The translations under genes and the position numbers were made by a program. DNA of 64,000 nt from Candidatus Kapaibacterium sp. (GTDB taxonomy: Bacteria > Bacteroidota > Ignavibacteria > Kapaibacteriales > UBA2268): the NCBI GenBank assembly GCA_963665665.1, contig OY762428.1, positions 1,216,001 to 1,280,000 of the forward strand, in the 5' to 3' direction. Below the pieces are notes generated by a model. That model had not been told where the DNA came from and ran no database searches. It was given only the letters and a program-made list of their open reading frames with translations. Shown here in pieces: positions 39,856-48,087 of this stretch. Each line of letters starts with the position of its first letter. Position 1 is the first letter of the stretch.

Positions 39856-42345
39856 TTAATCATTAAAAAGAGTCAGCCTGATACCGGCGTATACTTTCCT
39901 GCCCATAACCGGCGCCCATATAATCGATGAATCGAAATATTTCCCGAAAGGTTCCTGCCATGCAAGGATAGGATTTTTCTGGGTATAATCGCCAAGGTTT
40001 TCACCACCGACATATATTTCGAAATCCTTGAATTTCTTGGTAATCTGCCCCATAAATAAAAAGTAAGCATCAAATTCATCCGGGAGGCGGTATTCCACCG
40101 GATTCTGAGAAGTATTAGGAAGCCTTCCGCTGCCTATCCTGTTGGCAGTGAAATCAAATGCCCAGGAATCATCATCAGTTGTATATCCAATATTTATAAA
40201 GGATTTGTTCCTGCTTTGCAGCGGTTTTTCCTCCAGCTTGCCGTTTAGAGTCATTTTTACATCCACCCACCTGTACGCTGCTGTTATTTCCAGTCCGTAT
40301 ATTGGTTCAAGATTCATATCCACCTGAAAAGCATTGGAATATGAGTCGCCATCCAGATTATATATATGAGTTTCGCCGGGTGAACGATCCAGGTCAATTA
40401 TCATCTGGTTTATGAAATTCGTATGGTAAAACTCCGCATTAAAATTTACCGGCAGGTCGAAAATATTAACTTCTGTTGATGCGTTCACACCAAAATTCCA
40501 TGCTTCCTCAGCATCAAGGTCTTCCTCGAAGAAAATTTCACGGGAACTTGCCAGCAAATTGATATTCTCTGCATATACATTCGGAACCCTATAGCCTTTA
40601 CCGGCAGAAGCCCTGATCACATTGTAGTCATCAAACTGATATTTTAAATGGAAACGAGGTGTTACAAATGTTCCGAAATTATTGTGAAAATCAGTTCTCA
40701 GGCCGGTTATCACAGTAAGTTTATCAATTCCGGTAAAAGTATATTCCGCAAAGGCCCCCGGAACAATCTCATTCCTGTACATACTTTGTCCGTTCAGCTC
40801 TTCAATATATTCATCAAATAAAAAACTGATCCCGGTGTTCAATTTGTGATCCGACACCCAATGCCCTACATGTTTTACACAGTTGGGCAGGCCTTCTTCA
40901 TGATCATGCTCTTCCGCGTGGCCGTGCCCTTCGTGGCTGTTATGATCATGCTCTTCCACGTGGCCGTGCCCTTCGTGGTCGTCATGTTCTTCCGCCTCTT
41001 CTGCATGATCGTGGCCTTCATGAGTATCATGTTCTTCCGTCTCTTCTGCATGATCGTGGCCCTCGTGGTCTTCATGCTCCTCGGATTCTTCTGCATGATC
41101 GTGGCCTTCATGGCTGTTATGATCATGCTCACACATATACCCGAATTCCGTATCGAAAAGCAGATTTAAATAGAAAGAATTTTCGTCGGCCTTATAATTA
41201 TTGCTGCCAAAGAAAGCATCCTGCTCGTGCCTGCTGGCCGAAAATAGCAAGGCTAAACTGGAGTGATCGCCAACAAAGAAACCACTCTTGCCAAAGGCTT
41301 CATAGCGCCTGGTATTAATTTCCATACCGTAAAGATCGTTATTATCGCTGCCGAAATATCCTTTCTGCCCGCCTCTTCTTTCTTCACTCAAAGCCTTAAC
41401 GCCAAATTGAGTATGGCCCAGAGAATGGTCATAAGTCCACCTGTTCATAAAATTGATCTGTCTCGTTGTCGGCATATCAAGAAAAGTATCATCATTGTGG
41501 TCAATCTCAGTTTGCATCTGGCTGACATGAGCAAAAATTGCCGTCCCTAGATTCTCACTAACTTTTATTGAAGAGTTCAGGTTGGCCTCGAGCCTTGCGG
41601 CATCATTTGCAAACAGATTTATAAATAGTGGTTCACCTGTATTTGGCTTTTTATAATCAACGCTGATCTGTCCGGTTATTGATTCATAGCCTGTAGCAAC
41701 CGAAGCAGCCCCTTTGGAAATGGCAATCGATTCCATCCATGACCCGGGAACGTAGTTCAGCCCGAAAGTATTAGCCAGGCCACGCATCAAAGGAATCTTT
41801 TCAGTCAGCATCTGCGAATATATTCCCGCCAGCCCAAGAAGTTCTATCTGTTTCGCACCGGTTACAGCATCACTATATGATACATCAACAGATGGATTGG
41901 TTTCAAAACTTTCCGCCAGGTTGCAGCAGGCAGCTTTTCTTAAGCCGTGGCCGCCTATCCTGTCGGTACGTATATCATCGTTAAAATTGATAAGAGTTGC
42001 AGTTTCATTTGCTGTTACAACTACTTCGTCGGTGCTGTAACTCGATTCCAGGACAACTTCAATATTGTCAACAGTTGATGATATTGATATGGTATCCTTC
42101 ATATATCCGGTGTAGGATACAATCAAATTATTACTGTTGTCGGGTTTTGGGATTGAGAACTTACCCTCTCTGTCTGCAAGAGTGCCTTTTTTTGTACCCA
42201 TCCAGAACAATGTTGCTTTCGGAAGTATGTCTTTCTTCCCTTCAGCATCTATACCATATACAACACCATTAACGGTATTTGGTTCGGCATTCAAATCTGT
42301 AAAAATTCCAAGCGTTAATAATATTATAAATATCTTTTTCATCAT
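39856..42345 (-). CDS. TonB-dependent receptor (metal-uptake type) with His-rich insertion
   Basis: CarboxypepD-like N-domain, plug KAACCNLAESFETNPSVD, KG..SV..GYESITGQI, ends YAGIRLTLFND. Confidence 0.93.
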   Translation of the reverse strand: MMKKIFIILLTLGIFTDLNAEPNTVNGVVYGIDAEGKKDILPKATLFWMGTKKGTLADREGKFSIPKPDNSNNLIVSYTGYMKDTISISSTVDNIEVVLESSYSTDEVVVTANETATLINFNDDIRTDRIGGHGLRKAACCNLAESFETNPSVDVSYSDAVTGAKQIELLGLAGIYSQMLTEKIPLMRGLANTFGLNYVPGSWMESIAISKGAASVATGYESITGQISVDYKKPNTGEPLFINLFANDAARLEANLNSSIKVSENLGTAIFAHVSQMQTEIDHNDDTFLDMPTTRQINFMNRWTYDHSLGHTQFGVKALSEERRGGQKGYFGSDNNDLYGMEINTRRYEAFGKSGFFVGDHSSLALLFSASRHEQDAFFGSNNYKADENSFYLNLLFDTEFGYMCEHDHNSHEGHDHAEESEEHEDHEGHDHAEETEEHDTHEGHDHAEEAEEHDDHEGHGHVEEHDHNSHEGHGHAEEHDHEEGLPNCVKHVGHWVSDHKLNTGISFLFDEYIEELNGQSMYRNEIVPGAFAEYTFTGIDKLTVITGLRTDFHNNFGTFVTPRFHLKYQFDDYNVIRASAGKGYRVPNVYAENINLLASSREIFFEEDLDAEEAWNFGVNASTEVNIFDLPVNFNAEFYHTNFINQMIIDLDRSPGETHIYNLDGDSYSNAFQVDMNLEPIYGLEITAAYRWVDVKMTLNGKLEEKPLQSRNKSFINIGYTTDDDSWAFDFTANRIGSGRLPNTSQNPVEYRLPDEFDAYFLFMGQITKKFKDFEIYVGGENLGDYTQKNPILAWQEPFGKYFDSSIIWAPVMGRKVYAGIRLTLFND
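40879..41133 (-). repeat. Intragenic ~45-bp degenerate repeat encoding five HEGH(D/G)H(A/V)EE units
   Basis: C-EHDHNSHEGHDHAEE...HDHEEGLPN-C; 24 His in 85 aa. Confidence 0.9.
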
Positions 42346-42420
42346 AATCTCCGTAATAAAAATCAATAAATCGCTCCGCAATAAGCGGATTCAATAAAAG
42401 TGTATTTGTAATGATTAAGA

Positions 42421-42918
42421 TTAAAGGAGATTATCCGGAACATCATCCCGGTCTGAACTGAATTGTTTGGCCAGTATTATTGAAAGGATAAGTTGTGGTT
42501 TCCGGACAATTTCTACAAAGGGCCCGGAAAAATTATTATCAAAGTCAGATATATAAAGCTTCTCTCTTATAATATCGCTGATATATTCTTTAAGAAGAAC
42601 TTTCACTTTCGCAAAATGATTAGGAATATCAAAGCTTACATCCAAAACATGGAAATCAGAATAATTGATACAATGCCCGAAATCATCAAAAAACTGAGTA
42701 TCATTATTTCCGTAATCATTCGCCATAGTGCAGCAAGCACCACCACTACAACAATTGCAATTTTCATGATGCCCCTCGCAGCTAAGGTCGGAACTTAAAG
42801 ATGCGAACTTCATACCTGTATGCGAACACTCGTGATAATAAATCTCAACACCAATCAGCGAAAGCATCACCGACTGGATAAGAATTATTGCTACGATATG
42901 TTTGAAATACTTTTTCAT
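42421..42918 (-). CDS. Cys/His-rich small secreted protein (HYC_CC_PP-like)
   Basis: Hydrophobic N-terminus, YYHEC, CNCC..CC; first gene of a TBDR-HMA operon, the usual position for this family. Confidence 0.65.
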   Translation of the reverse strand: MKKYFKHIVAIILIQSVMLSLIGVEIYYHECSHTGMKFASLSSDLSCEGHHENCNCCSGGACCTMANDYGNNDTQFFDDFGHCINYSDFHVLDVSFDIPNHFAKVKVLLKEYISDIIREKLYISDFDNNFSGPFVEIVRKPQLILSIILAKQFSSDRDDVPDNLL

Positions 42919-43099
42919 ATTCTTCAAGAATTACGAATAACAAAATTACATATTTTGGATTGAAATTAAAAAACATGATCGAATAATTATTCAGGTTGCC
43001 TGCTGCCTGTAATGAAGTTTATATAAAACAGACAAAATATTCAATAGCTACGCTCTTTAACTCGTGGATAAAGATGCAAGGTTCGGAGGCAAAGAAAGA

Positions 43100-43661
43100 A
43101 AACCACTCCTATAACCCCATCCTCCGCGAGGATGGGATAAGAAGTTAAATATCATAAGATTAACTCCCCCTCTTTCGAAGGAGGGAGCCGGGGGGAGGTT
43201 GGGAGGGTCTATGGTAATGCACCGTTGTTTTGCTTCATTGATACCTTGTTCCAAATCAAAGCAAGAAAACCACCCCTGTATTCCCCTCCTACTTTAGGAG
43301 GGGATAAGAAGTTAAATAACATAGAATTAACTCCCCCTCCTTTCGAAGGAGGGGGGCGGGGGGAGGTAGGAAGTGTCGAAAGCAATGTACCAATGGTTGA
43401 AGATAATGAACTCTTGGTTGAAGCTATTGCAGCAATGTTTTGCTTTATTGCTGCCTTGTTTGAAGCTGTTGATACCTTGTTCGAAGTTATTGCTGCCTTG
43501 GTCGGAGTTATTGACGCCTTGGTCGGAGTTATTGACGCCTTGGTCGGAGGCAAAGAAACAAAACCTCCCCTGTATTCCCCTCCTCCGCGAGGAGGGGATA
43601 AGAAGTTAAATAACATAGAATTAACTCCCCCTCCTTCCGAAGGATGTGGCCGGGGGGAGGT
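43100..43661. mobile_element. Three copies of a ~100-bp double-hairpin MITE/REP element
   Basis: AAACC.CCCCT..CCCCTCCT..AGGAGGGGATAAGAAGTTAAAT..TTAACTCCCCCTCCTT..AAGGAGGG..GGGGGGAGGT at ~43100, 43267 and 43561. Confidence 0.75.
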
Positions 43662-44044
43662 AGGAAGTGTCGAAAGCAAAGCACCGATGTTCTAAGCCAT
43701 TGCAACAATGTTTTGCTTTATTGACGCCTTGGTCGAAGGCATTGCTGCCTTGGTCGGAGGCATTGCTGCAATGTTTTGCTTTATTGTTCCCTTGGTCGGA
43801 GGTAAAATACCGTTGTTCGAGGGCATTATTGCCTTATTCTTCTTCAAAGCCCTCTCCTTCGGGGAGGGTTTGGGAGGGGTCGGAGCCATTGCACCAATGT
43901 TTGATTCTATTGTTGCTTTATTCTTCTTCAAAGCCCTCTCCTTCGGGGAGGGTTTGGGAGGGGTCGGAGTTATTGCACAGATGTTTGATTCAATTGTTGC
44001 CTCGGTCGGTGGTAATGATTGCTTGTGTAGTATTGGAATCCGAA
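43380..44044 (-). repeat. Degenerate 21-bp tandem array (left arm), interrupted by MITEs
   Basis: Plus-strand unit GCCTTGGTCGGAGTTATTGAC and variants; minus strand reads GCAATnnnnCGA(A/C)CAAGnnA. Confidence 0.85.
43846..43964. repeat. Two copies of REP-like AAAGCCCTCTCCTTCGGGGAGGGTTTGGGAGGGGT
   Basis: Identical copies at 43846 and 43930, 84 bp apart. Confidence 0.85.
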
Positions 44045-44564
44045 ATATTTAGCTGATTGAATAATTTATAATACTTGAATAATAAAATATATCATAAGAA
44101 TTAGTAAATATTTAAGTATTTGTAATAAATATATTTATCAGATTATTAAATAATCATATAGATTTACAATATTAATAATATAACTAATCAAATAAATAAT
44201 TCATACAAGACATTAATCACTGTTTTTTATAAATTCTTCTTCTTCTTTTATAAAATATATTGGGTATCCAAGTATATATTTAATTGTTCTAACAAATTAG
44301 ATATACTGATTAATTAATAGGTTAATACTAATATTTAATAGTCTATAATATTAATTTAATAAATCATACCAATTATTTAATTATATGTATAAGATAAATA
44401 GTTATTTATATAAAAAGTTTTGTTAGATGAACTATATCAAGGCTTGGATATGTTATATAAATTATTATAAATACTATATATTTATTACAATTAGTATAAT
44501 ATTTAGTAATTTTACCTATATATTTGATTATTAGTTCTATCTATATACTATTCTCATCTCTACC
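44045..44564. other. Extremely AT-rich non-coding core with inverted symmetry
   Basis: No ORF of 60 aa or more; 44078-44134 matches revcomp of 44476-44532 at 46/57 ungapped. Confidence 0.8.
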
Positions 44565-44860
44565 TTCGGGATTTCAATGCCAAACAAGCAAGCAACGAGG
44601 CGGAACAAGCAAGCAATGAAGCCGAACAAGTGAGCAATGAAGCCGAACAAGTGAGCAATGAAGCGGAACAAGCGAGCAATTAGGCAAAACAAGACAGCAA
44701 TTAGGCAAAACAAGACAGCAATGAGGCATAACAAGTGAGCAATGAAGCAGAACAAGCAAGCAACGAGGCGAAACAAGCGTACAATGAAGCGGAACAAGAC
44801 ATCAGTGAGGCAAAACAAGTGTGCAATAAGCCGGAACAAGACAGTTTAAAGCCCTGCCAA
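44565..44860 (+). repeat. Degenerate 21-bp tandem array (right arm), 13 units
   Basis: Invariant AACAAG every 21 bp from 44583 to 44835; consensus AACAAGnnAGCAATGA(A/G)GCnG. Confidence 0.95.
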
Positions 44861-45020
44861 CAAAGCAATTATCCCAAACATCAGGATTCTGGTTCGAAAC
44901 AGCATTGAATTAAGGAAATTATCCGATTCATTGAAACCACAGGATGGGGAATTAAGGCGATCGGCCTGTTCATTGGGGTGGAAGAACGGGTAAACTGAGC
45001 AAAAGAATGAGATGTTATGT

Positions 45021-45307
45021 TGTCATTCCCCGACACGTCGGGGCAGGCTTCCGGAGCGAAGCGACCGAAGAATCCATCTTCTTTAGTTAGATAGTGTATG
45101 AAGAATGGATACTTCGCTCCGCTCAGTATGACAATACACCCTTAAAGCCTCCTTCCCAAGCCCCCGCTTGGGAAGGAATTTTTCCTGCAAAGTTCTACTT
45201 TGGAATTATGAAGCTCAGCTTCAAAAGAAAACTGCATTACGAAGTACAACTTCGTAATGAGGGGAAATGCATTAAGAATGGATTCTTCGCTGGCGCTCAG
45301 AATGACA
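45021..45307. mobile_element. Cluster of REP/MITE-like elements
   Basis: TGTCATT..GAGCGAAGCGACCGAAGAATCC...GGATACTTCGCTCCGCTCAGTATGACA (45021-45133); CCTTCCCAAG..CTTGGGAAGG...CATTACGAAG..CTTCGTAATG (45148-45262); lone end GGATTCTTCGCTGGCGCTCAGAATGACA (45280-45307). Confidence 0.7.
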
Positions 45308-45400
45308 TCCCAGCAACTATAATAACTTCAATAGGAAAAGAATCCACCCCCGGCCTGTCGGGGCCGGCGGGCTTCTCCCAAAGTTGCACTTTCGGGAGTT

Positions 45401-46009
45401 TCACTCAGCCACAATGAATTTGAAATGATCGATTGTTTTATTGTGTTTGATTTTCAGGCCTGATTTTTCAACTATGGGTTCCAGTCCGCCATTTCGGTAA
45501 TAATTAACAAAACCGCTAAAATGATCCGGCCCGGCAAAAAACTCGGCAAGATAATTTGATATTCCGCGCAGGTCAAGTGGCTGTGGTATGCTGTAGTCCA
45601 CTATTATTAATTTGTCCGATACGCTTTTCATGGATTTCAGCACGTCGATACGTATTTCCGGTGGCATTTCGTGTAGTGCATAAGAAATAAATGCCCAGTT
45701 GAAACCGCCGTTTGATATTTTATTCAGTTCAAGGGCATTGCCGTGAACAAAATCCACATTACCAATCTTTTTATTTCTTCTTATTTTATCAGCTTCCCTG
45801 ATGTTTTTCGAGGAAAGGTCAATTCCTGTTACTTTATCGGCAAGGTTTGCTGCAATAAATGAGAAGCCCCCGGTAGCGCAGGCAACATCGAGAACGGAGC
45901 CCGTCCTGCCGATATATTCAGCAGCCATTTTATATACTTTCTCCTGGTGCGGCACAATAAACTTCTCATAAAAAGCGCCGTCGTACCAGTGTTTCTTTTC
46001 TCTTTGCAT
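45401..46009 (-). CDS. Class I SAM-dependent methyltransferase
   Basis: VLDVACATG, GIDLS, GNA, SYALHEMP, IVDY. Confidence 0.9.
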   Translation of the reverse strand: MQREKKHWYDGAFYEKFIVPHQEKVYKMAAEYIGRTGSVLDVACATGGFSFIAANLADKVTGIDLSSKNIREADKIRRNKKIGNVDFVHGNALELNKISNGGFNWAFISYALHEMPPEIRIDVLKSMKSVSDKLIIVDYSIPQPLDLRGISNYLAEFFAGPDHFSGFVNYYRNGGLEPIVEKSGLKIKHNKTIDHFKFIVAE

Positions 46010-46026
46010 TTTCCAGCTGTTATTGT

Positions 46027-46371
46027 TTAATAAAAGCCAAGTTCCATCTGTGCTGCTTCGCTCATCATTGACTGATCCCAGGGCGGATCGAATGTAAGAA
46101 TAACTTTTGCATCCTTTACAGCGTCGATTTCTTTAACTTTCGTTTCCACTTCGCCGGGCATAGACCCCGCAGCGGGACAGTTTGGTGCTGTTAAAGTCAT
46201 TAATATCACTACTTCTTTTTCGGCTGTAACCTTTACGTCGTATATCAGGCCAAGCTCCCATATATTAACAGGTATTTCCGGATCAAATACAGTTTTTATC
46301 TGATCCACTGCCTTCATTTCGATTTCTTTGAGTTCAGTTAACTGATTATCCATAACAACCTCAGCATTCAT
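46027..46371 (-). CDS. sufT: SufT/DUF59 Fe-S assembly protein
   Basis: VFDPEIPVNIWELGLIY, MTLTAPNCPAA, FDPPW..MSEAA. Confidence 0.92.
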   Translation of the reverse strand: MNAEVVMDNQLTELKEIEMKAVDQIKTVFDPEIPVNIWELGLIYDVKVTAEKEVVILMTLTAPNCPAAGSMPGEVETKVKEIDAVKDAKVILTFDPPWDQSMMSEAAQMELGFY

Positions 46372-46804
46372 CTTTTTCATCAATAGCATCTATCATTGTG
46401 TGCCAGGCAAGGGATGCGCATTTCACCCTGGCCGGAAATTCGCGCACGCCGGAAAATACTGCGAGTTTGCCAAGCTCGGCCATATCCGGTTCTTCATCAA
46501 CAGGCATTGTTACTACATGATGAAACTTATCGAACATTTGCTTTGCCTCTTCAACGGTTTTACCTTTCACCATTGTTGTCAGCAGCGATGCGGAGGCTTT
46601 GGAAATAGCACAACCCTCGCCGGTAAACTTTATATCTTTTATAATATTATCCGAATCAATATCCAGCTGTATATCTATCTGGTCTCCGCATAGGGGATTA
46701 TGACCGTGAGCACACCTGTTCTTAGTTTGAAGTTCACCGAAATTCCTCGGTGATTTATTGTGGTCCAATATTACTTCCTGATAAAGATCATTTATTTCAC
46801 TCAT
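46361..46804 (-). CDS. sufU: SufU/IscU-type protein
   Basis: LYQEVILDH..PRNFG, NPLCGD, GCAISKASAS, PARVKCA.LAWH. Confidence 0.95.
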   Translation of the reverse strand: MSEINDLYQEVILDHNKSPRNFGELQTKNRCAHGHNPLCGDQIDIQLDIDSDNIIKDIKFTGEGCAISKASASLLTTMVKGKTVEEAKQMFDKFHHVVTMPVDEEPDMAELGKLAVFSGVREFPARVKCASLAWHTMIDAIDEKDEC

Positions 46805-46821
46805 CTCAAAACCTGAATTTT

Positions 46822-48087
46822 TTACGAAAACATATTTATAACTTTTTTAAGTGCTTTTGCCAGTTCGTCAATTTCTTCTTTTGTATTGTAGAATGCAAAG
46901 GATGCACGGGAAGTAGCCGGAATACCAAACCTTCTCATTACCGGTTCTGTGCAGTGGTGACCGGTTCTGACAGCTATACCCTGCGTATCGAGTAAAGTTC
47001 CCACGTCATGCGGATGAATATTATCAAGAACAAAAGAAATGGCTCCTGCTTTTTCCTTGGCAGTACCAATGATTTTAAGTCCGTTTATTGCAGATAGCTT
47101 TTCGGTTCCATATTCCATCAATTCTTTTTCGTATGCGGCAATTTTATCTATCCCTGTTTTTCTGACGTAGGTGATAGCTTCTCCAAGGCCAATGGCACCG
47201 ACAATATTTGGCGTTCCGGCTTCGAACCTGTAAGGCAGGTCGTTGTAAATAGTTTTTTCAAATGTTACGGATTTAATCATATCCCCGCCACCCTGATACG
47301 GCGGCATTTCAGCAAGAATATCTTTCTTTCCGTATAATACGCCTATCCCTGTAGGGCCGTATATTTTATGGCCTGAAAAAGCCATGAAATCAACATCGAG
47401 TTCTCTTACATCGACGGGAATATGCTGTATAGACTGTGCCGTATCCATTAAAACAACAGCACCAACTTCATGGGCAGCATCAATAATCTGCTTTGCAGGA
47501 TTGATAGTGCCAAGGGAATTCGATACATGAACAAAAGATACAATTTTTGTCCTTCTGTTCAACATTTTATAATATTCTTCAAGATCAATTTCGCCATCGT
47601 CGGTTATCGGAACAACTTTAAGAATAGCGCCGCTGTCTTGTGCAAGGAGCTGCCAGGGAACAATATTGGAGTGATGTTCCATTCCGGTAATAAGTATTTC
47701 ATCGCCATGTTTTACATTGGCCCTGCCCCATGTGGATGCAACCAGGTTGATGGATTCAGTTGTGCCGCGTGTAAAGATCAGCTCGATATCCCTTGTGGAA
47801 TTTACCAGCTTTTGTATCTGATGCCTTGCCGCTTCGTACCTGCGGGTAGCTTCCTGGCTAAGGTGGTGCACCCCGCGATGAATATTACTGTTATAATTAG
47901 TATAATATTTCGTTATTTCATCAATTACCTGCCTGGGTTTCTGCGTAGTAGCAGCATTGTCAAGGTAAATCAGCGGCCTGTTATGCACTTCCTGCGCAAG
48001 TACCGGAAAATCTGACCTGATCTTATCAATATCCAGGCCGTGGGTATTTAATTTAGTTGCTGTTGCATTCATATATGGATCTTTCAT
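46822..48087 (-). CDS. sufS: Cysteine desulfurase SufS
   Basis: YLDNAATTQKP, EHHSNIVPWQ, SGHKIYGPTGIG, RTGHHC. Confidence 0.97.
   Translation of the reverse strand: MKDPYMNATATKLNTHGLDIDKIRSDFPVLAQEVHNRPLIYLDNAATTQKPRQVIDEITKYYTNYNSNIHRGVHHLSQEATRRYEAARHQIQKLVNSTRDIELIFTRGTTESINLVASTWGRANVKHGDEILITGMEHHSNIVPWQLLAQDSGAILKVVPITDDGEIDLEEYYKMLNRRTKIVSFVHVSNSLGTINPAKQIIDAAHEVGAVVLMDTAQSIQHIPVDVRELDVDFMAFSGHKIYGPTGIGVLYGKKDILAEMPPYQGGGDMIKSVTFEKTIYNDLPYRFEAGTPNIVGAIGLGEAITYVRKTGIDKIAAYEKELMEYGTEKLSAINGLKIIGTAKEKAGAISFVLDNIHPHDVGTLLDTQGIAVRTGHHCTEPVMRRFGIPATSRASFAFYNTKEEIDELAKALKKVINMFS

Follow-up and report, generated by a model that had tools for sequence, protein, structure and literature searches.

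The paired 21-bp repeat arrays studied here lie in the window, by which we mean the whole 64,000-nt stretch of Candidatus Kapaibacterium DNA that was analysed. This locus probably belongs to a family of dispersed, non-coding fold-back repeats that is specific to its lineage. The module has a left (L) arm, built from 21-bp units and in-phase hairpin blocks of two kinds, then a junction, an inverted right (R) arm and a tail of ~175 bp, and the whole of it has been copied to ~47 sites. Copy number, fixed architecture, the hairpin potential of the arms, a preference for sites between gene ends and mosaic relationships among the parts are all directly observed. Several further features look more ordered than junk, namely the phase kept across two unrelated inserted blocks, the fixed junction, the ATGs at that junction, the spacing of a core motif and the outward-facing terminators. 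Judged from sequence, these would fit a transcribed, even partly coding, unit.

Layout of the window element

Two inverted arrays flank an AT-rich core (15-16% GC), and the element and its borders contain the following features.

43090-44016, minus strand: L arm; 21-bp units broken up by block A (three copies) and hairpin B (two copies) (TRF, motif map)
43085-43215 (approximate), minus strand: block A copy 1, the 'MITE' of the first-pass annotation; two GC-rich hairpins, of which the second resembles a minus-strand terminator
43258-43380 (approximate), minus strand: block A copy 2, placed by sequence
43547-43668, minus strand: block A copy 3, the BLAST reference for block A
43846-43885, no strand: hairpin B copy 1; GC-rich stem closed by a TTCG loop, replacing two 21-bp units
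43930-43969, no strand: hairpin B copy 2, placed by sequence
44017-44044, minus strand: left junction; inverted partner of 44565-44593, conserved in 15/15 copies
44040-44560, no strand: AT-rich core, with no ORF of at least 40 aa
44078-44134, no strand: left inner inverted repeat; partner 44476-44532, 46/57 complementary
44250-44296, minus strand: degenerate version of the motif region in inverted orientation; 70% complementarity with 44419-44465
44413-44440, plus strand: conserved 28-nt motif AAAAGTTTnGTTAGATrAACTATATCAA, pointing at the R arm
44476-44532, no strand: right inner inverted repeat; partner 44078-44134
44565-44593, plus strand: right junction (15-copy alignment)
44583-44844, plus strand: R arm; 12.3 units of 21 bp
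44846-45020, plus strand: non-repeat tail, following the R arm in core-bearing and core-less modules
45021-45130 (approximate), no strand: small palindromic repeat of the GTCATTC...GAATCC type, following the tail in nearly all modules
45150-45177, plus strand: terminator-like hairpin downstream of the R arm; 12 pairs, then ATTTTTCC

The first-pass annotation described inverted junctions, an inverted match within the core and two outward-facing arrays of one 21-bp unit, and all of these are recovered. Segment 44565-44593 aligns with the reverse complement of 44017-44044, and 44078-44134 matches that of 44476-44532 at 46/57 positions without gaps. On the right, TRF reports a period-21 array of 12.3 units at 44583-44840; on the left, it finds several interrupted arrays with periods of 21, 42, 63 and 84 bp at 43445-44002. 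A unit motif scan assigns the left units to the minus strand and those on the right to the plus strand. Both plus frames that had been translated through the right arm carry stops, and the absence of a gene between the arms is borne out by the lack of any ORF of at least 40 aa between 44057 and 44536; the window core contains neither an ORF nor an ORF remnant.

Two of the earlier readings are amended. The L arm is indeed interrupted, but the interrupting 'MITE' is mostly block A, an array-associated sequence: 61/69 near-full copies are found no more than 400 bp from a 21-bp array, and the 21-bp phase is kept across block A in 17/18 measurable cases. Both copies of hairpin B fall within the TRF period-84 row at 43825-44002. 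The palindrome had been given a single fixed centre and, although its 46/57 match holds, a second internal inverted pair (44250-44296 / 44419-44465) is centred at ~44357, so the core has no single dyad. The 44250-44296 column block is conserved in the 15-copy core alignment.

Comparison with shuffled sequences, which had been proposed as a check, gives different answers for the arms and for the core. The arms are strongly above chance (same layout in 15/15 core copies; z of -9.8 for the core-less hairpin), whereas the inverted match within the core is moderately so, its best ungapped inverted score being 24 against 14.8 +/- 2.7 in 300 dinucleotide shuffles, 3/300 of which reach 24. Of all core copies, that in the window has the best inner inverted match (46/57, against 38-42/57 in the other 14).

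The element is real DNA and no assembly artefact. A fold-back introduced during assembly, the possibility raised earlier, is ruled out by the short-read contigs of two independent studies, which end at ~43163-43205 and restart at ~45303-45405, and by depth over the core, where the summed depth of core bins is 6-18x that of the flanks (one short-read run). Homology between the window copy and the other 14 core-bearing copies begins at ~43040-43090, and the small palindromic repeat was placed from the alignment of 51 tails together with the module layout.

A family of modules across the genome

The window element is not a unique locus: the genome, a single contig of 5.46 Mb, contains 15 full-length cores and 47 unique head-to-head array pairs. 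The full-length cores are 86-94% identical to the window copy, and one further, diverged core is 83% identical over 384 bp. Both arms are present at 15/15 full-length cores, always in the layout '<<<< core >>>>'. Core-bearing modules, with an AT-rich segment of ~546 bp between the arms, are one subfamily, and 32/47 modules are core-less. The distance between arms is 24 bp in 30 of the 47 pairs, where a fixed junction of that length joins them, 87 bp in 2 and 570 bp in 14; in the window copy it is 780 bp because the first left units have diverged. Common to all pairs is the ~175-bp tail after one arm, which has 53 BLAST matches in the genome (51 aligned). In total, arrays with a 21-bp period occupy 57,748 bp (~58 kb, ~1% of the genome) in 183 merged intervals, and each 21-mer combines constant anchors with about 4-8 variable positions. 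One module is tandemly duplicated with a period of 1396 bp, between copies of the small palindromic repeat.

By a crude ORF-based gene set, 21/47 modules lie between convergent genes and 6/47 between divergent genes, and no flanking gene family recurs at the 47 loci beyond generic large families. A tree of the tails took in the 12/15 core-bearing modules with a tail in the set; these form no clade (p-AU 0.0007), and a single origin of the core-bearing subfamily, as judged by tail sequences, is rejected. Recombination, not repeated acquisition, may account for this result.

Like MITEs and foldback elements, the modules are multi-copy and dispersed, with long inverted arms and a core devoid of long ORFs. 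Neither a transposase nor any target-site duplication or defined terminus came to light for them, and their outer borders blur gradually into other small repeats. No empty site was found, since the collections searched include no close relative (no genome of the same genus). We propose that the family spread by a duplicative process for which the module itself encodes no enzyme, and that its copies were homogenised and reshuffled by ectopic recombination or gene conversion. The arrays may turn over in 21-bp steps by replication slippage and unequal exchange, and the family as a whole would act as selfish or structural DNA.

The head-to-head arrays confer a strong fold-back potential. A core-less module folds as one long hairpin of -187.8 kcal/mol, against -130.2 +/- 5.9 kcal/mol in 100 shuffles, and does so on both strands (z of -9.8 and -10.7). 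Within this fold the variable tetranucleotides of opposite arms are non-complementary and remain as internal loops.

The copy number also bears on a proposal that we regard as very improbable: that the arrays are phased protein-binding sites on either side of an unwinding region, like those of iteron origins, centromeres or other sites that organise the chromosome. The appeal of this proposal lies in the 21-bp period, equal to two helical turns and kept in phase across inserted blocks in 17/18 cases, in the alternation of constant anchor bases with variable positions, and in the AT-rich centre. An oriC is single copy, lies at the cumulative GC-skew switch, usually near dnaA, and carries a cluster of DnaA boxes beside an AT-rich unwinding element; iteron origins and partition centromeres lie beside a Rep or ParA/ParB gene, the product of which binds the repeats. 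Here, by contrast, 47 modules and 16 cores are distributed over one chromosome, and for a family repeated at ~47 sites of one genome an origin or centromere is not supported. The GC-skew test suggested earlier places the element, at 1.259 Mb of the genome, away from both the cumulative minimum (1.73 Mb) and maximum (5.11 Mb). The dnaA gene lies at 1.550 Mb, ~290 kb away, and the single DnaA-like box in 43000-45400 (at most 1 mismatch to the consensus) is at 43063, in a flanking repeat. The earlier statement that no cognate protein is encoded nearby holds for the flanking ORFs, among which there is no Rep, Par or other DNA-binding gene: by Pfam the six are a TonB-dependent receptor, a 168-aa ORF with no match, a methyltransferase, FeS_assembly_P, NifU_N and a class-V aminotransferase. 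No neighbour recurs among the modules, and searches of plasmid and phage collections gave no match to the family. Iteron plasmid origins and oriC do share with this family direct repeats of ~20 bp beside an AT-rich stretch; they differ from it in copy number, position, the inverted two-arm layout, and the DnaA boxes and Rep gene that the family lacks.

Possible coding and transcription of the arrays

Because 21 bp corresponds to one heptad of codons, the arrays might be, or have been, small coiled-coil coding sequences, the window copy then being a pair of decayed heptad-repeat pseudogenes split by an inserted AT-rich island. We judge this account unlikely. In its favour, the junction of core-less subfamilies A, B and D coincides exactly with an ATG, and a stop follows within the tail, giving heptad ORFs of 90-150 aa. 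Read outward (e.g. MFSKINQAFSK...NEAKFHYIKAKQ, then the stop), the 12 plus-oriented core-less modules that were translated in this frame are open to the tail stop, apart from one with a stop near its end. The core-less relative L021 passes the Pfam Alanine_zipper model (PF11839-like; 25.1 against a cut-off of 23.1 bits), and one protein of another organism shares the KANQVFS heptads. Start codons were counted for both the outward and the inward direction: in the inward frame Ile/Leu occupy positions a and d of the heptad, and 40/46 anchorable tails provide this frame with an ATG or TTG in register shortly before the array. In-phase insertions of 7n codons would also preserve the heptad register.

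Against this, the design of the unit leaves 4/6 frames open, so that open frames carry little weight, and sense and antisense frames are both amphipathic. Codon log-odds conflict between arms and subfamilies, being -0.3 to -0.5 outward and +0.5 to +0.8 inward in the R arms of A-C, and +0.26 outward and -0.42 inward in the E-type R arm. Pfam and NCBIfam return generic coiled-coil matches on both strands; those from Pfam are of a coiled-coil or low-complexity kind, and the antisense frame 'passes' ApoB100_C. A search of 5.8 billion proteins yields only 1 match. At least one in-frame stop is present in 7/15 core-bearing R arms, and L-arm frames are broken by stops in 11/17 in-phase blocks. In the window, the heptad frame of the R arm (QASNEAE) has 3 stops, and from the upstream stop to the array there is no start codon (ATG, GTG or TTG); this copy thus lacks the start and the open frame required of an Alanine_zipper protein gene. 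Within the preferred reading of a non-coding fold-back family, the 21-bp unit may still descend from heptad-repeat coding sequence.

The core also carries the 28-nt motif. Allowing up to 4 mismatches, this motif occurs at 30 genome sites, 16 in cores and 14 in other AT-rich islands, and in all 16 cores it points at the R arm from ~125 nt ahead. Downstream of every site the sequence has ~17-29% GC for 150 nt; beyond that, GC rises to 0.32-0.47 at 24/30 sites and stays at 0.22-0.27 at the six sites that belong to the 2-kb repeat. The right part of the core is a copy of a type of AT-rich island that carries the motif at 30 sites. A multi-copy 295-aa ORF beside another island family was considered as the cognate protein and set aside, no link to the arrays having emerged; it has no Pfam, NCBIfam or PDB sequence match and falls in unnamed ESM Atlas clusters only.

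These observations invite a further reading, in which the locus would be bidirectionally transcribed, with the AT-rich core as a two-faced promoter island and one outward transcript per arm. Each RNA would then be a string of 21-nt units, in which the anchors are constant and a tetranucleotide varies, and would end in a hairpin terminator, and core-less modules would give a single read-through transcript that folds into a long, imperfect double-stranded hairpin. We consider this rather unlikely, although some observations support it indirectly. The motif has a constant orientation and spacing in 16/16 cores and lies equally far from the AT/GC boundary in the 14 other islands, and towards the L arm the core presents an inverted, degenerate version of it. 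T-tailed terminator-like hairpins face outward on both sides, on the minus strand once per block A (43187-43166, 43355-43333 and 43644-43626) and on the plus strand at 45150-45177; nine such sites compare with 2.2 +/- 1.6 in shuffles. Sigma-70 promoter-like matches are also in excess (14 against 7.9 +/- 2.6 in shuffles), and the arms have the hairpin potential described above.

Other findings speak against such transcripts. Rfam 15 gives no match at E up to 1 in window positions 41000-47000, and only two chance-level matches in three related loci. The 28-nt motif would not fit the -33/-7 promoter consensus of Bacteroidota. Core-less modules, 32/47 of the family, leave no room for internal promoters. 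In at least one non-array island the motif is directed into an ABC-2 transporter gene, which lies convergent to it, at the 3' end, and this island has the look of an insertion, not of a promoter. Between opposite arms, moreover, the variable tetranucleotides do not complement one another.

A more specific version would make the core-bearing modules a new kind of bacterial 'leader-array' locus. An AT-rich island with a conserved 28-nt operator would fire both ways to produce two RNAs whose 21-nt units carry constant anchors plus a hypervariable tetranucleotide, and hairpin terminators within the arms would cut these RNAs off; core-less modules would yield long hairpin RNAs. This we hold to be distinctly unlikely. 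If true, the family would not be junk and would serve as a regulated repeat-RNA system, for example as decoy, sponge or small-RNA precursor.

Distribution and comparison with known systems

Among the collections searched, the family is restricted to this genome. Across 40 genomes from the same family or order, DNA searches with core and tail returned only short AT-rich or chance matches, a result that reads as 'not found in those searched' because most of the 40 are fragmented MAGs, in which repeats are often unassembled. JGI metagenome contigs gave 0 matches to a tail pattern and an L-array pattern, and a search of the literature found no account of head-to-head arrays of 21-bp units from Kapabacteria or Bacteroidota. 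In two studies the contig breaks coincide exactly with the borders of the module, and the family shows how much structured repeat DNA short-read MAGs miss. It gives handles on how such repeats spread and whether they are transcribed, with the 28-nt motif as a candidate protein-binding site. For annotation, such loci should not be called origins, and hydrophobic or heptad ORFs predicted over them call for caution.

CRISPR arrays consist of identical repeats separated by unique spacers of similar length; the 21-bp units abut head to tail, and a CRISPR array is ruled out. A link to 23S_rRNA_IVP cassettes was also rejected: such cassettes carry a small four-helix-bundle gene (PF05635) between their inverted arrays, whereas the three PF05635 genes of this genome all lie away from 21-bp arrays, and the arms of 7-nt units that flank one of them are unrelated to the 21-bp unit. 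Closer in form are the eukaryotic foldback elements (Drosophila FB, Galileo), which have long inverted arms of tandem sub-repeats around a non-repetitive middle and are multi-copy and dispersed, with many gene-less copies. The present family shares the inverted arms of sub-repeats, the non-repetitive middle, the copy number and the dispersal. It differs in its bacterial host and in the asymmetric tail on one side, and terminal inverted ends, a target-site duplication and a transposase are not definable for it.

Among bacterial repeats, the TAACTGA direct repeats of Beggiatoaceae and the cyanobacterial STRR heptamers are abundant, intergenic and genome-specific, with a suspected regulatory role (PMC4679880). 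Compared with those repeats, this family has paired instead of direct arrays, a 21-bp unit instead of a heptamer, and a shared flanking module. The nearest class consists of convergent, inverted pairs of short tandem arrays in intergenic DNA, exemplified by the GGGAATC heptamer repeats of Xanthomonas and described without an explanation (Rehm et al. 2015, PMC4692102). The first-pass annotation knew of no named element of this form, which stands for the exact form but not for the class, since inverted pairs of short tandem arrays have already been described (PMC4692102). Both kinds of pair place the same unit on opposite strands close together, are intergenic and rarer between divergent genes, have stem-loop or cruciform potential, and vary in unit number from copy to copy (PMC4692102). 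Unlike the Rehm-type units, which are G-rich, 6-9 nt long and arise locally, the unit here is 21 bp and not G-rich (PMC4692102). Relative to those pairs, the arms of this family are 200-900 bp long with diverged consensus units in the two arms, and its copies share a non-repeat junction, tail and core. Because these non-repeat parts are shared, what is repeated is the whole module of 1.4-2.5 kb and not a local microsatellite. Paired inverted tandem arrays are a widespread class of bacterial repeat, and this genome provides an unusually large and well-resolved case.

Symmetry and copy number of the element

The element consists of two outward-facing arrays of 21-bp units, inverted junctions and an AT-rich core. 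Both arrays proposed in the first-pass annotation are confirmed by TRF rows and by a scan with the unit motif, which assigns left-arm units to the minus strand and right-arm units to the plus strand. Its inverted junctions do align, and its inner inverted repeat pairs at 46/57 positions without gaps. The claimed absence of a gene between the arms likewise stands, as 44057-44536 contains no ORF of at least 40 aa, and Rfam gives no match at E up to 1 across the element region.

Features of the element (window coordinates)
43445-44002, minus strand: interrupted arrays of the left (L) arm, with periods of 21, 42, 63 and 84 (TRF)
44017-44044, reverse complement aligning to 44565-44593: inverted junctions
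44078-44134 and 44476-44532: inner inverted repeat
44413-44440: 28-nt motif
44583-44840, plus strand: right (R) arm, 12.3 units of 21 bp (TRF)
44846-45020: non-repeat tail
45150-45177, plus strand: terminator-like hairpin

A two-fold symmetry with one fixed centre had been proposed for the whole region; this holds mainly for the arms and junctions. In a shuffle test of the kind suggested with the proposal, the best ungapped inverted score within 44000-44610 is 24, against 14.8 ± 2.7 in 300 dinucleotide-preserving shuffles of that region, three of which reach 24. The 57-nt inverted pair falls to 38-42/57 in the other 14 core copies, and a second inverted pair inside the core has a different centre. 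The symmetry therefore derives mainly from the arms and junctions, and the core interior contributes little.

The window element is not unique: it belongs to a family of repeats. The window corresponds to bases 1,216,001-1,280,000 of the genome. When the 521-bp core was searched by BLAST against this genome (one contig, 5,458,198 bp, 38.6% GC), 14 additional full-length copies were found at 86-95% identity, for 15 full-length sites with the window copy counted, together with a diverged copy (83% identity across 384 bp). Each copy is flanked by both junctions, all 15 full-length copies (15/15) have the core between a minus-strand and a plus-strand array, and homology across them extends from ~43040 to ~45340 in window coordinates. 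Genome-wide, TRF reports 288 rows at period 21, 83 at period 42 and 56 at period 63, and arrays whose period is a multiple of 21 merge into 183 intervals covering 57,748 bp. The module count suggested by the first-pass annotation gives 16 cores, including the diverged one, and 47 head-to-head loci, the latter from 52 plus-strand and 57 minus-strand unit-motif clusters forming 48 pairings, one of them counted twice. Thirty of the 47 loci have exactly 24 bp from the final minus-strand unit to the initial plus-strand unit; this gap measures 87 bp in two loci and 570 bp in 14. The window copy has a gap of 780 bp, owing to divergence of its first left units. The core thus amounts to an extra ~546 bp carried by a single subfamily within a broader family.

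A possible assembly artefact is countered by independent data. The locus is present in seven run rows from two studies, whose short-read contigs stop at 43163-43205 and restart at 45303-45405, and in one of the sequencing runs (X1) summed depth is 226-618 in core bins compared with 35 in the flanks. The breaks and the raised depth thus establish that the structure is real and multi-copy.

Module anatomy and coding potential

Core-less modules join their arms directly at a junction, which falls into one of four sequence types, A to D. The ~175-bp tail lies behind the R arm at 53 places, so that the orientation of every module can be read from it. A tandem duplicate pair at genome 1.775-1.777 Mb displays one complete module of 1396 bp, with the following order of parts.

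Small palindromic repeat
Block A
Units with hairpin B
L arm
Junction
R arm
Tail
Small palindromic repeat

Several other families of small palindromic repeats, among them the GTCATTC...GAATCC type, lie around the modules, for example at window 45021-45400, and blur their borders. Block A, described earlier as a MITE interrupting the left array, belongs mostly to the family: 61 of 69 near-full copies are found no more than 400 bp from a 21-bp array. Across block A, units remain spaced by multiples of 21 in 17 of 18 measurable cases, and hairpin B, a GC-rich stem within the L arm, replaces exactly two units (TRF period-84 row). Either strand of a core-less module is predicted to form a single long imperfect hairpin (-187.8 and -180.7 kcal/mol; z-scores of -9.8 and -10.7, 100 shuffles each), in which the constant parts of the units pair in register and the variable tetranucleotides form internal loops.

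Each 21-bp unit corresponds to one heptad, and its design leaves 4/6 frames open. Translated outward, R arms of core-less modules give KINQVFS, KVKQVLS or KVKQAWD, and those of core-bearing modules EQASNEA. Junction types A, B and D have an ATG falling exactly on the junction, and the frame terminates within the tail (...NEAKFHYIKAKQ-stop). A translated stretch that contains one 91-aa ORF of this kind scores above the Pfam Alanine_zipper cut-off (25.1 vs 23.1 bits); the antisense frame likewise exceeds the cut-off for ApoB100_C (Pfam), a match that is clearly spurious, and NCBIfam gives no match above its cut-offs. The inward frame places Ile and Leu at heptad positions a and d; for 40 of 46 anchored tails, an in-frame ATG or TTG lies shortly ahead of the array. 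Codon log-odds, trained on 1395 long ORFs (true frames +0.30 ± 0.11, antisense -0.59 ± 0.35), conflict among arms and subfamilies. For core-bearing R arms, the outward frame has at least one in-frame stop in 7/15 and a start before the array in 0/15; three stops in the window copy bear out the earlier report of stops in right-arm frames. The L-arm frame through block A contains stops in 11/17 in-phase blocks. Among 5.8 billion proteins searched, the single relative is P0001, a 130-aa protein from another organism (ENA, on a 1,051,362-bp contig), with only KANQVFS heptads in common. Its nine KANQVFS/KANHVFS heptads are flanked by Asn/Ile/Ser-rich ends without a match in this genome. The heptad unit therefore also exists in another organism, where it apparently sits in AT-rich DNA. 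The window copy is non-coding; core-less copies may encode small heptad proteins.

The AT-rich core and its 28-nt motif

The sole information-rich stretch of the core is the 28-nt motif, AAAAGTTTnGTTAGATrAACTATATCAA. It occurs at 30 genomic sites with at most four mismatches. Cores account for 16 of these; the remaining 14 lie in AT-rich islands that have no arrays and span at least three other families. Motif-marked islands are ~500-600 bp long. The ~400 nt before the motif have 14-19% GC at every site bar one (32%) and the ~150 nt after it 17-29%, past which the GC fraction is 0.32-0.47 at 24/30 sites and 0.22-0.27 at the six sites of a 2-kb repeat. The motif may be a protein-binding site, part of a promoter or the terminus of a mobile AT-rich element.

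An inverted, degenerate version of the motif is directed at the L arm. Outward-directed hairpins that resemble terminators and end in T-rich stretches occur in every block A (minus strand) and behind the module tail (plus strand); nine such sites were found, compared with 2.2 ± 1.6 in shuffles. The motif, its inverted copy and the outward hairpins provide the best, indirect, support for a putative outward transcription of the arms, the second idea of the first-pass annotation. As a counter-case, one motif island faces a convergent transporter gene and points into its 3′ end.

The ~2-kb repeat is present in six copies (genome 163595-170094, 860439, 3454771, 4627249, 4924262 and 4944501), two of them split by an IS3-family element (rve domain), and comprises a 295-aa ORF adjoining a ~1.1-kb AT-rich stretch bearing the motif. 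This ORF has no match in Pfam, NCBIfam or PDB and lies near unnamed ~300-aa clusters in the ESM Atlas. Behind five motif islands (genome 1731500-1734500, 1194086, 2358453, 2399609 and 2666436) lies a common non-coding stretch of ~350 nt that contains repeated TTTTCCGnnCCGGATATT-like boxes. This stretch has no match in Rfam and may represent a family of small RNAs or repeats that lacks annotation.

Evolution, distribution and relation to known repeats

An origin- or centromere-like site, as the first-pass annotation had suggested, is rejected. The family has 16 cores and 47 modules, and the element, at 1.259 Mb, lies away from both the minimum (1.73 Mb) and the maximum (5.11 Mb) of cumulative GC skew and from dnaA (genome 1,550,482-1,550,967), with a single DnaA-like box (at most one mismatch) within 43000-45400. 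Neighbouring ORFs are a TonB-dependent receptor, a 168-aa ORF without assignment, a methyltransferase and Fe-S assembly genes, and the core has no match among 72,556 plasmid and 50,697 phage records. The search for co-occurring genes, also proposed earlier, shows no gene family recurring beside the 47 loci. The TonB-dependent receptor ORF, of 841 aa, contains a 45-bp tandem repeat (window 40965-41113, 3.3 copies, 83% matches), which would give the protein a 15-residue repeat.

In a maximum-likelihood tree of 51 tails, the 12 core-bearing tails are scattered among core-less ones, and a tree constrained to group them is worse by 175.9 log-likelihood units (p-AU 0.0007). The parts of the module thus form a mosaic, which is what recombination among copies would produce. 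Unit order is strongly unlike even in copies with 94% identical cores, so array turnover is faster than that of the core. By a crude gene set (ORFs of at least 150 aa), the genes on either side of the 47 modules are convergent in 21 cases, divergent in 6 and co-directional in 20. The L-to-R direction follows the replication fork in 23/32 core-less modules (p 0.02 vs 0.5; gene baseline 0.57) and in 8/15 core-bearing modules, a weak signal. For the modules, neither termini nor a target duplication nor a transposase could be defined. The best-supported explanation, which we regard as somewhat probable, is a family of non-coding fold-back repeats, specific to this lineage, that spreads and recombines in this genome.

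Searches with core and tail yielded no convincing match across 40 genomes from the same family or order (best core match 83 nt at 75% identity; sole tail match at E 0.005); most of these are fragmented, so absence means only that the family was not found in those searched. Two patterns gave 0 matches in JGI metagenome contigs. A generic pattern of 21-bp-phased CAAG-N4-CART arrays matched 37 stretches among species-representative genomes, mostly in Bacteroidota and mostly resembling other intergenic 21-bp arrays; one of these matches, in a Candidatus Kapaibacterium MAG (G041:C1:1663776-1663934), has a unit near that of the L arm, at only one locus of that MAG. Intergenic 21-bp arrays with CAAG-N4-CA(A/G)T anchors occur in other Bacteroidota, including Flavobacterium sp. 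BFFFF2.

Eukaryotic foldback elements have the same architecture as the present family. A tie to 23S_rRNA_IVP hairpin cassettes was ruled out, as none of the three 23S_rRNA_IVP genes in the genome is linked to 21-bp arrays. One of them (genome 4405641-4406123; PF05635, 95.5 bits) has tandem arrays of 7-nt units around it, with AGTTGAT-like units on either side and ACTATCA-like units further out; the other two are without such arrays. The closest described class is that of the convergent tandem-heptamer pairs of Xanthomonas, with 70 pairs in one studied genome and 75 in the other; there they are intergenic, scarcer between divergent genes and in the majority transcribed, with their function given as unknown (PMC4692102). 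The present family is set apart by its 21-bp unit, its arm length and the diverged consensus units between its arms, as well as by its common junction and tail and its AT-rich island core.
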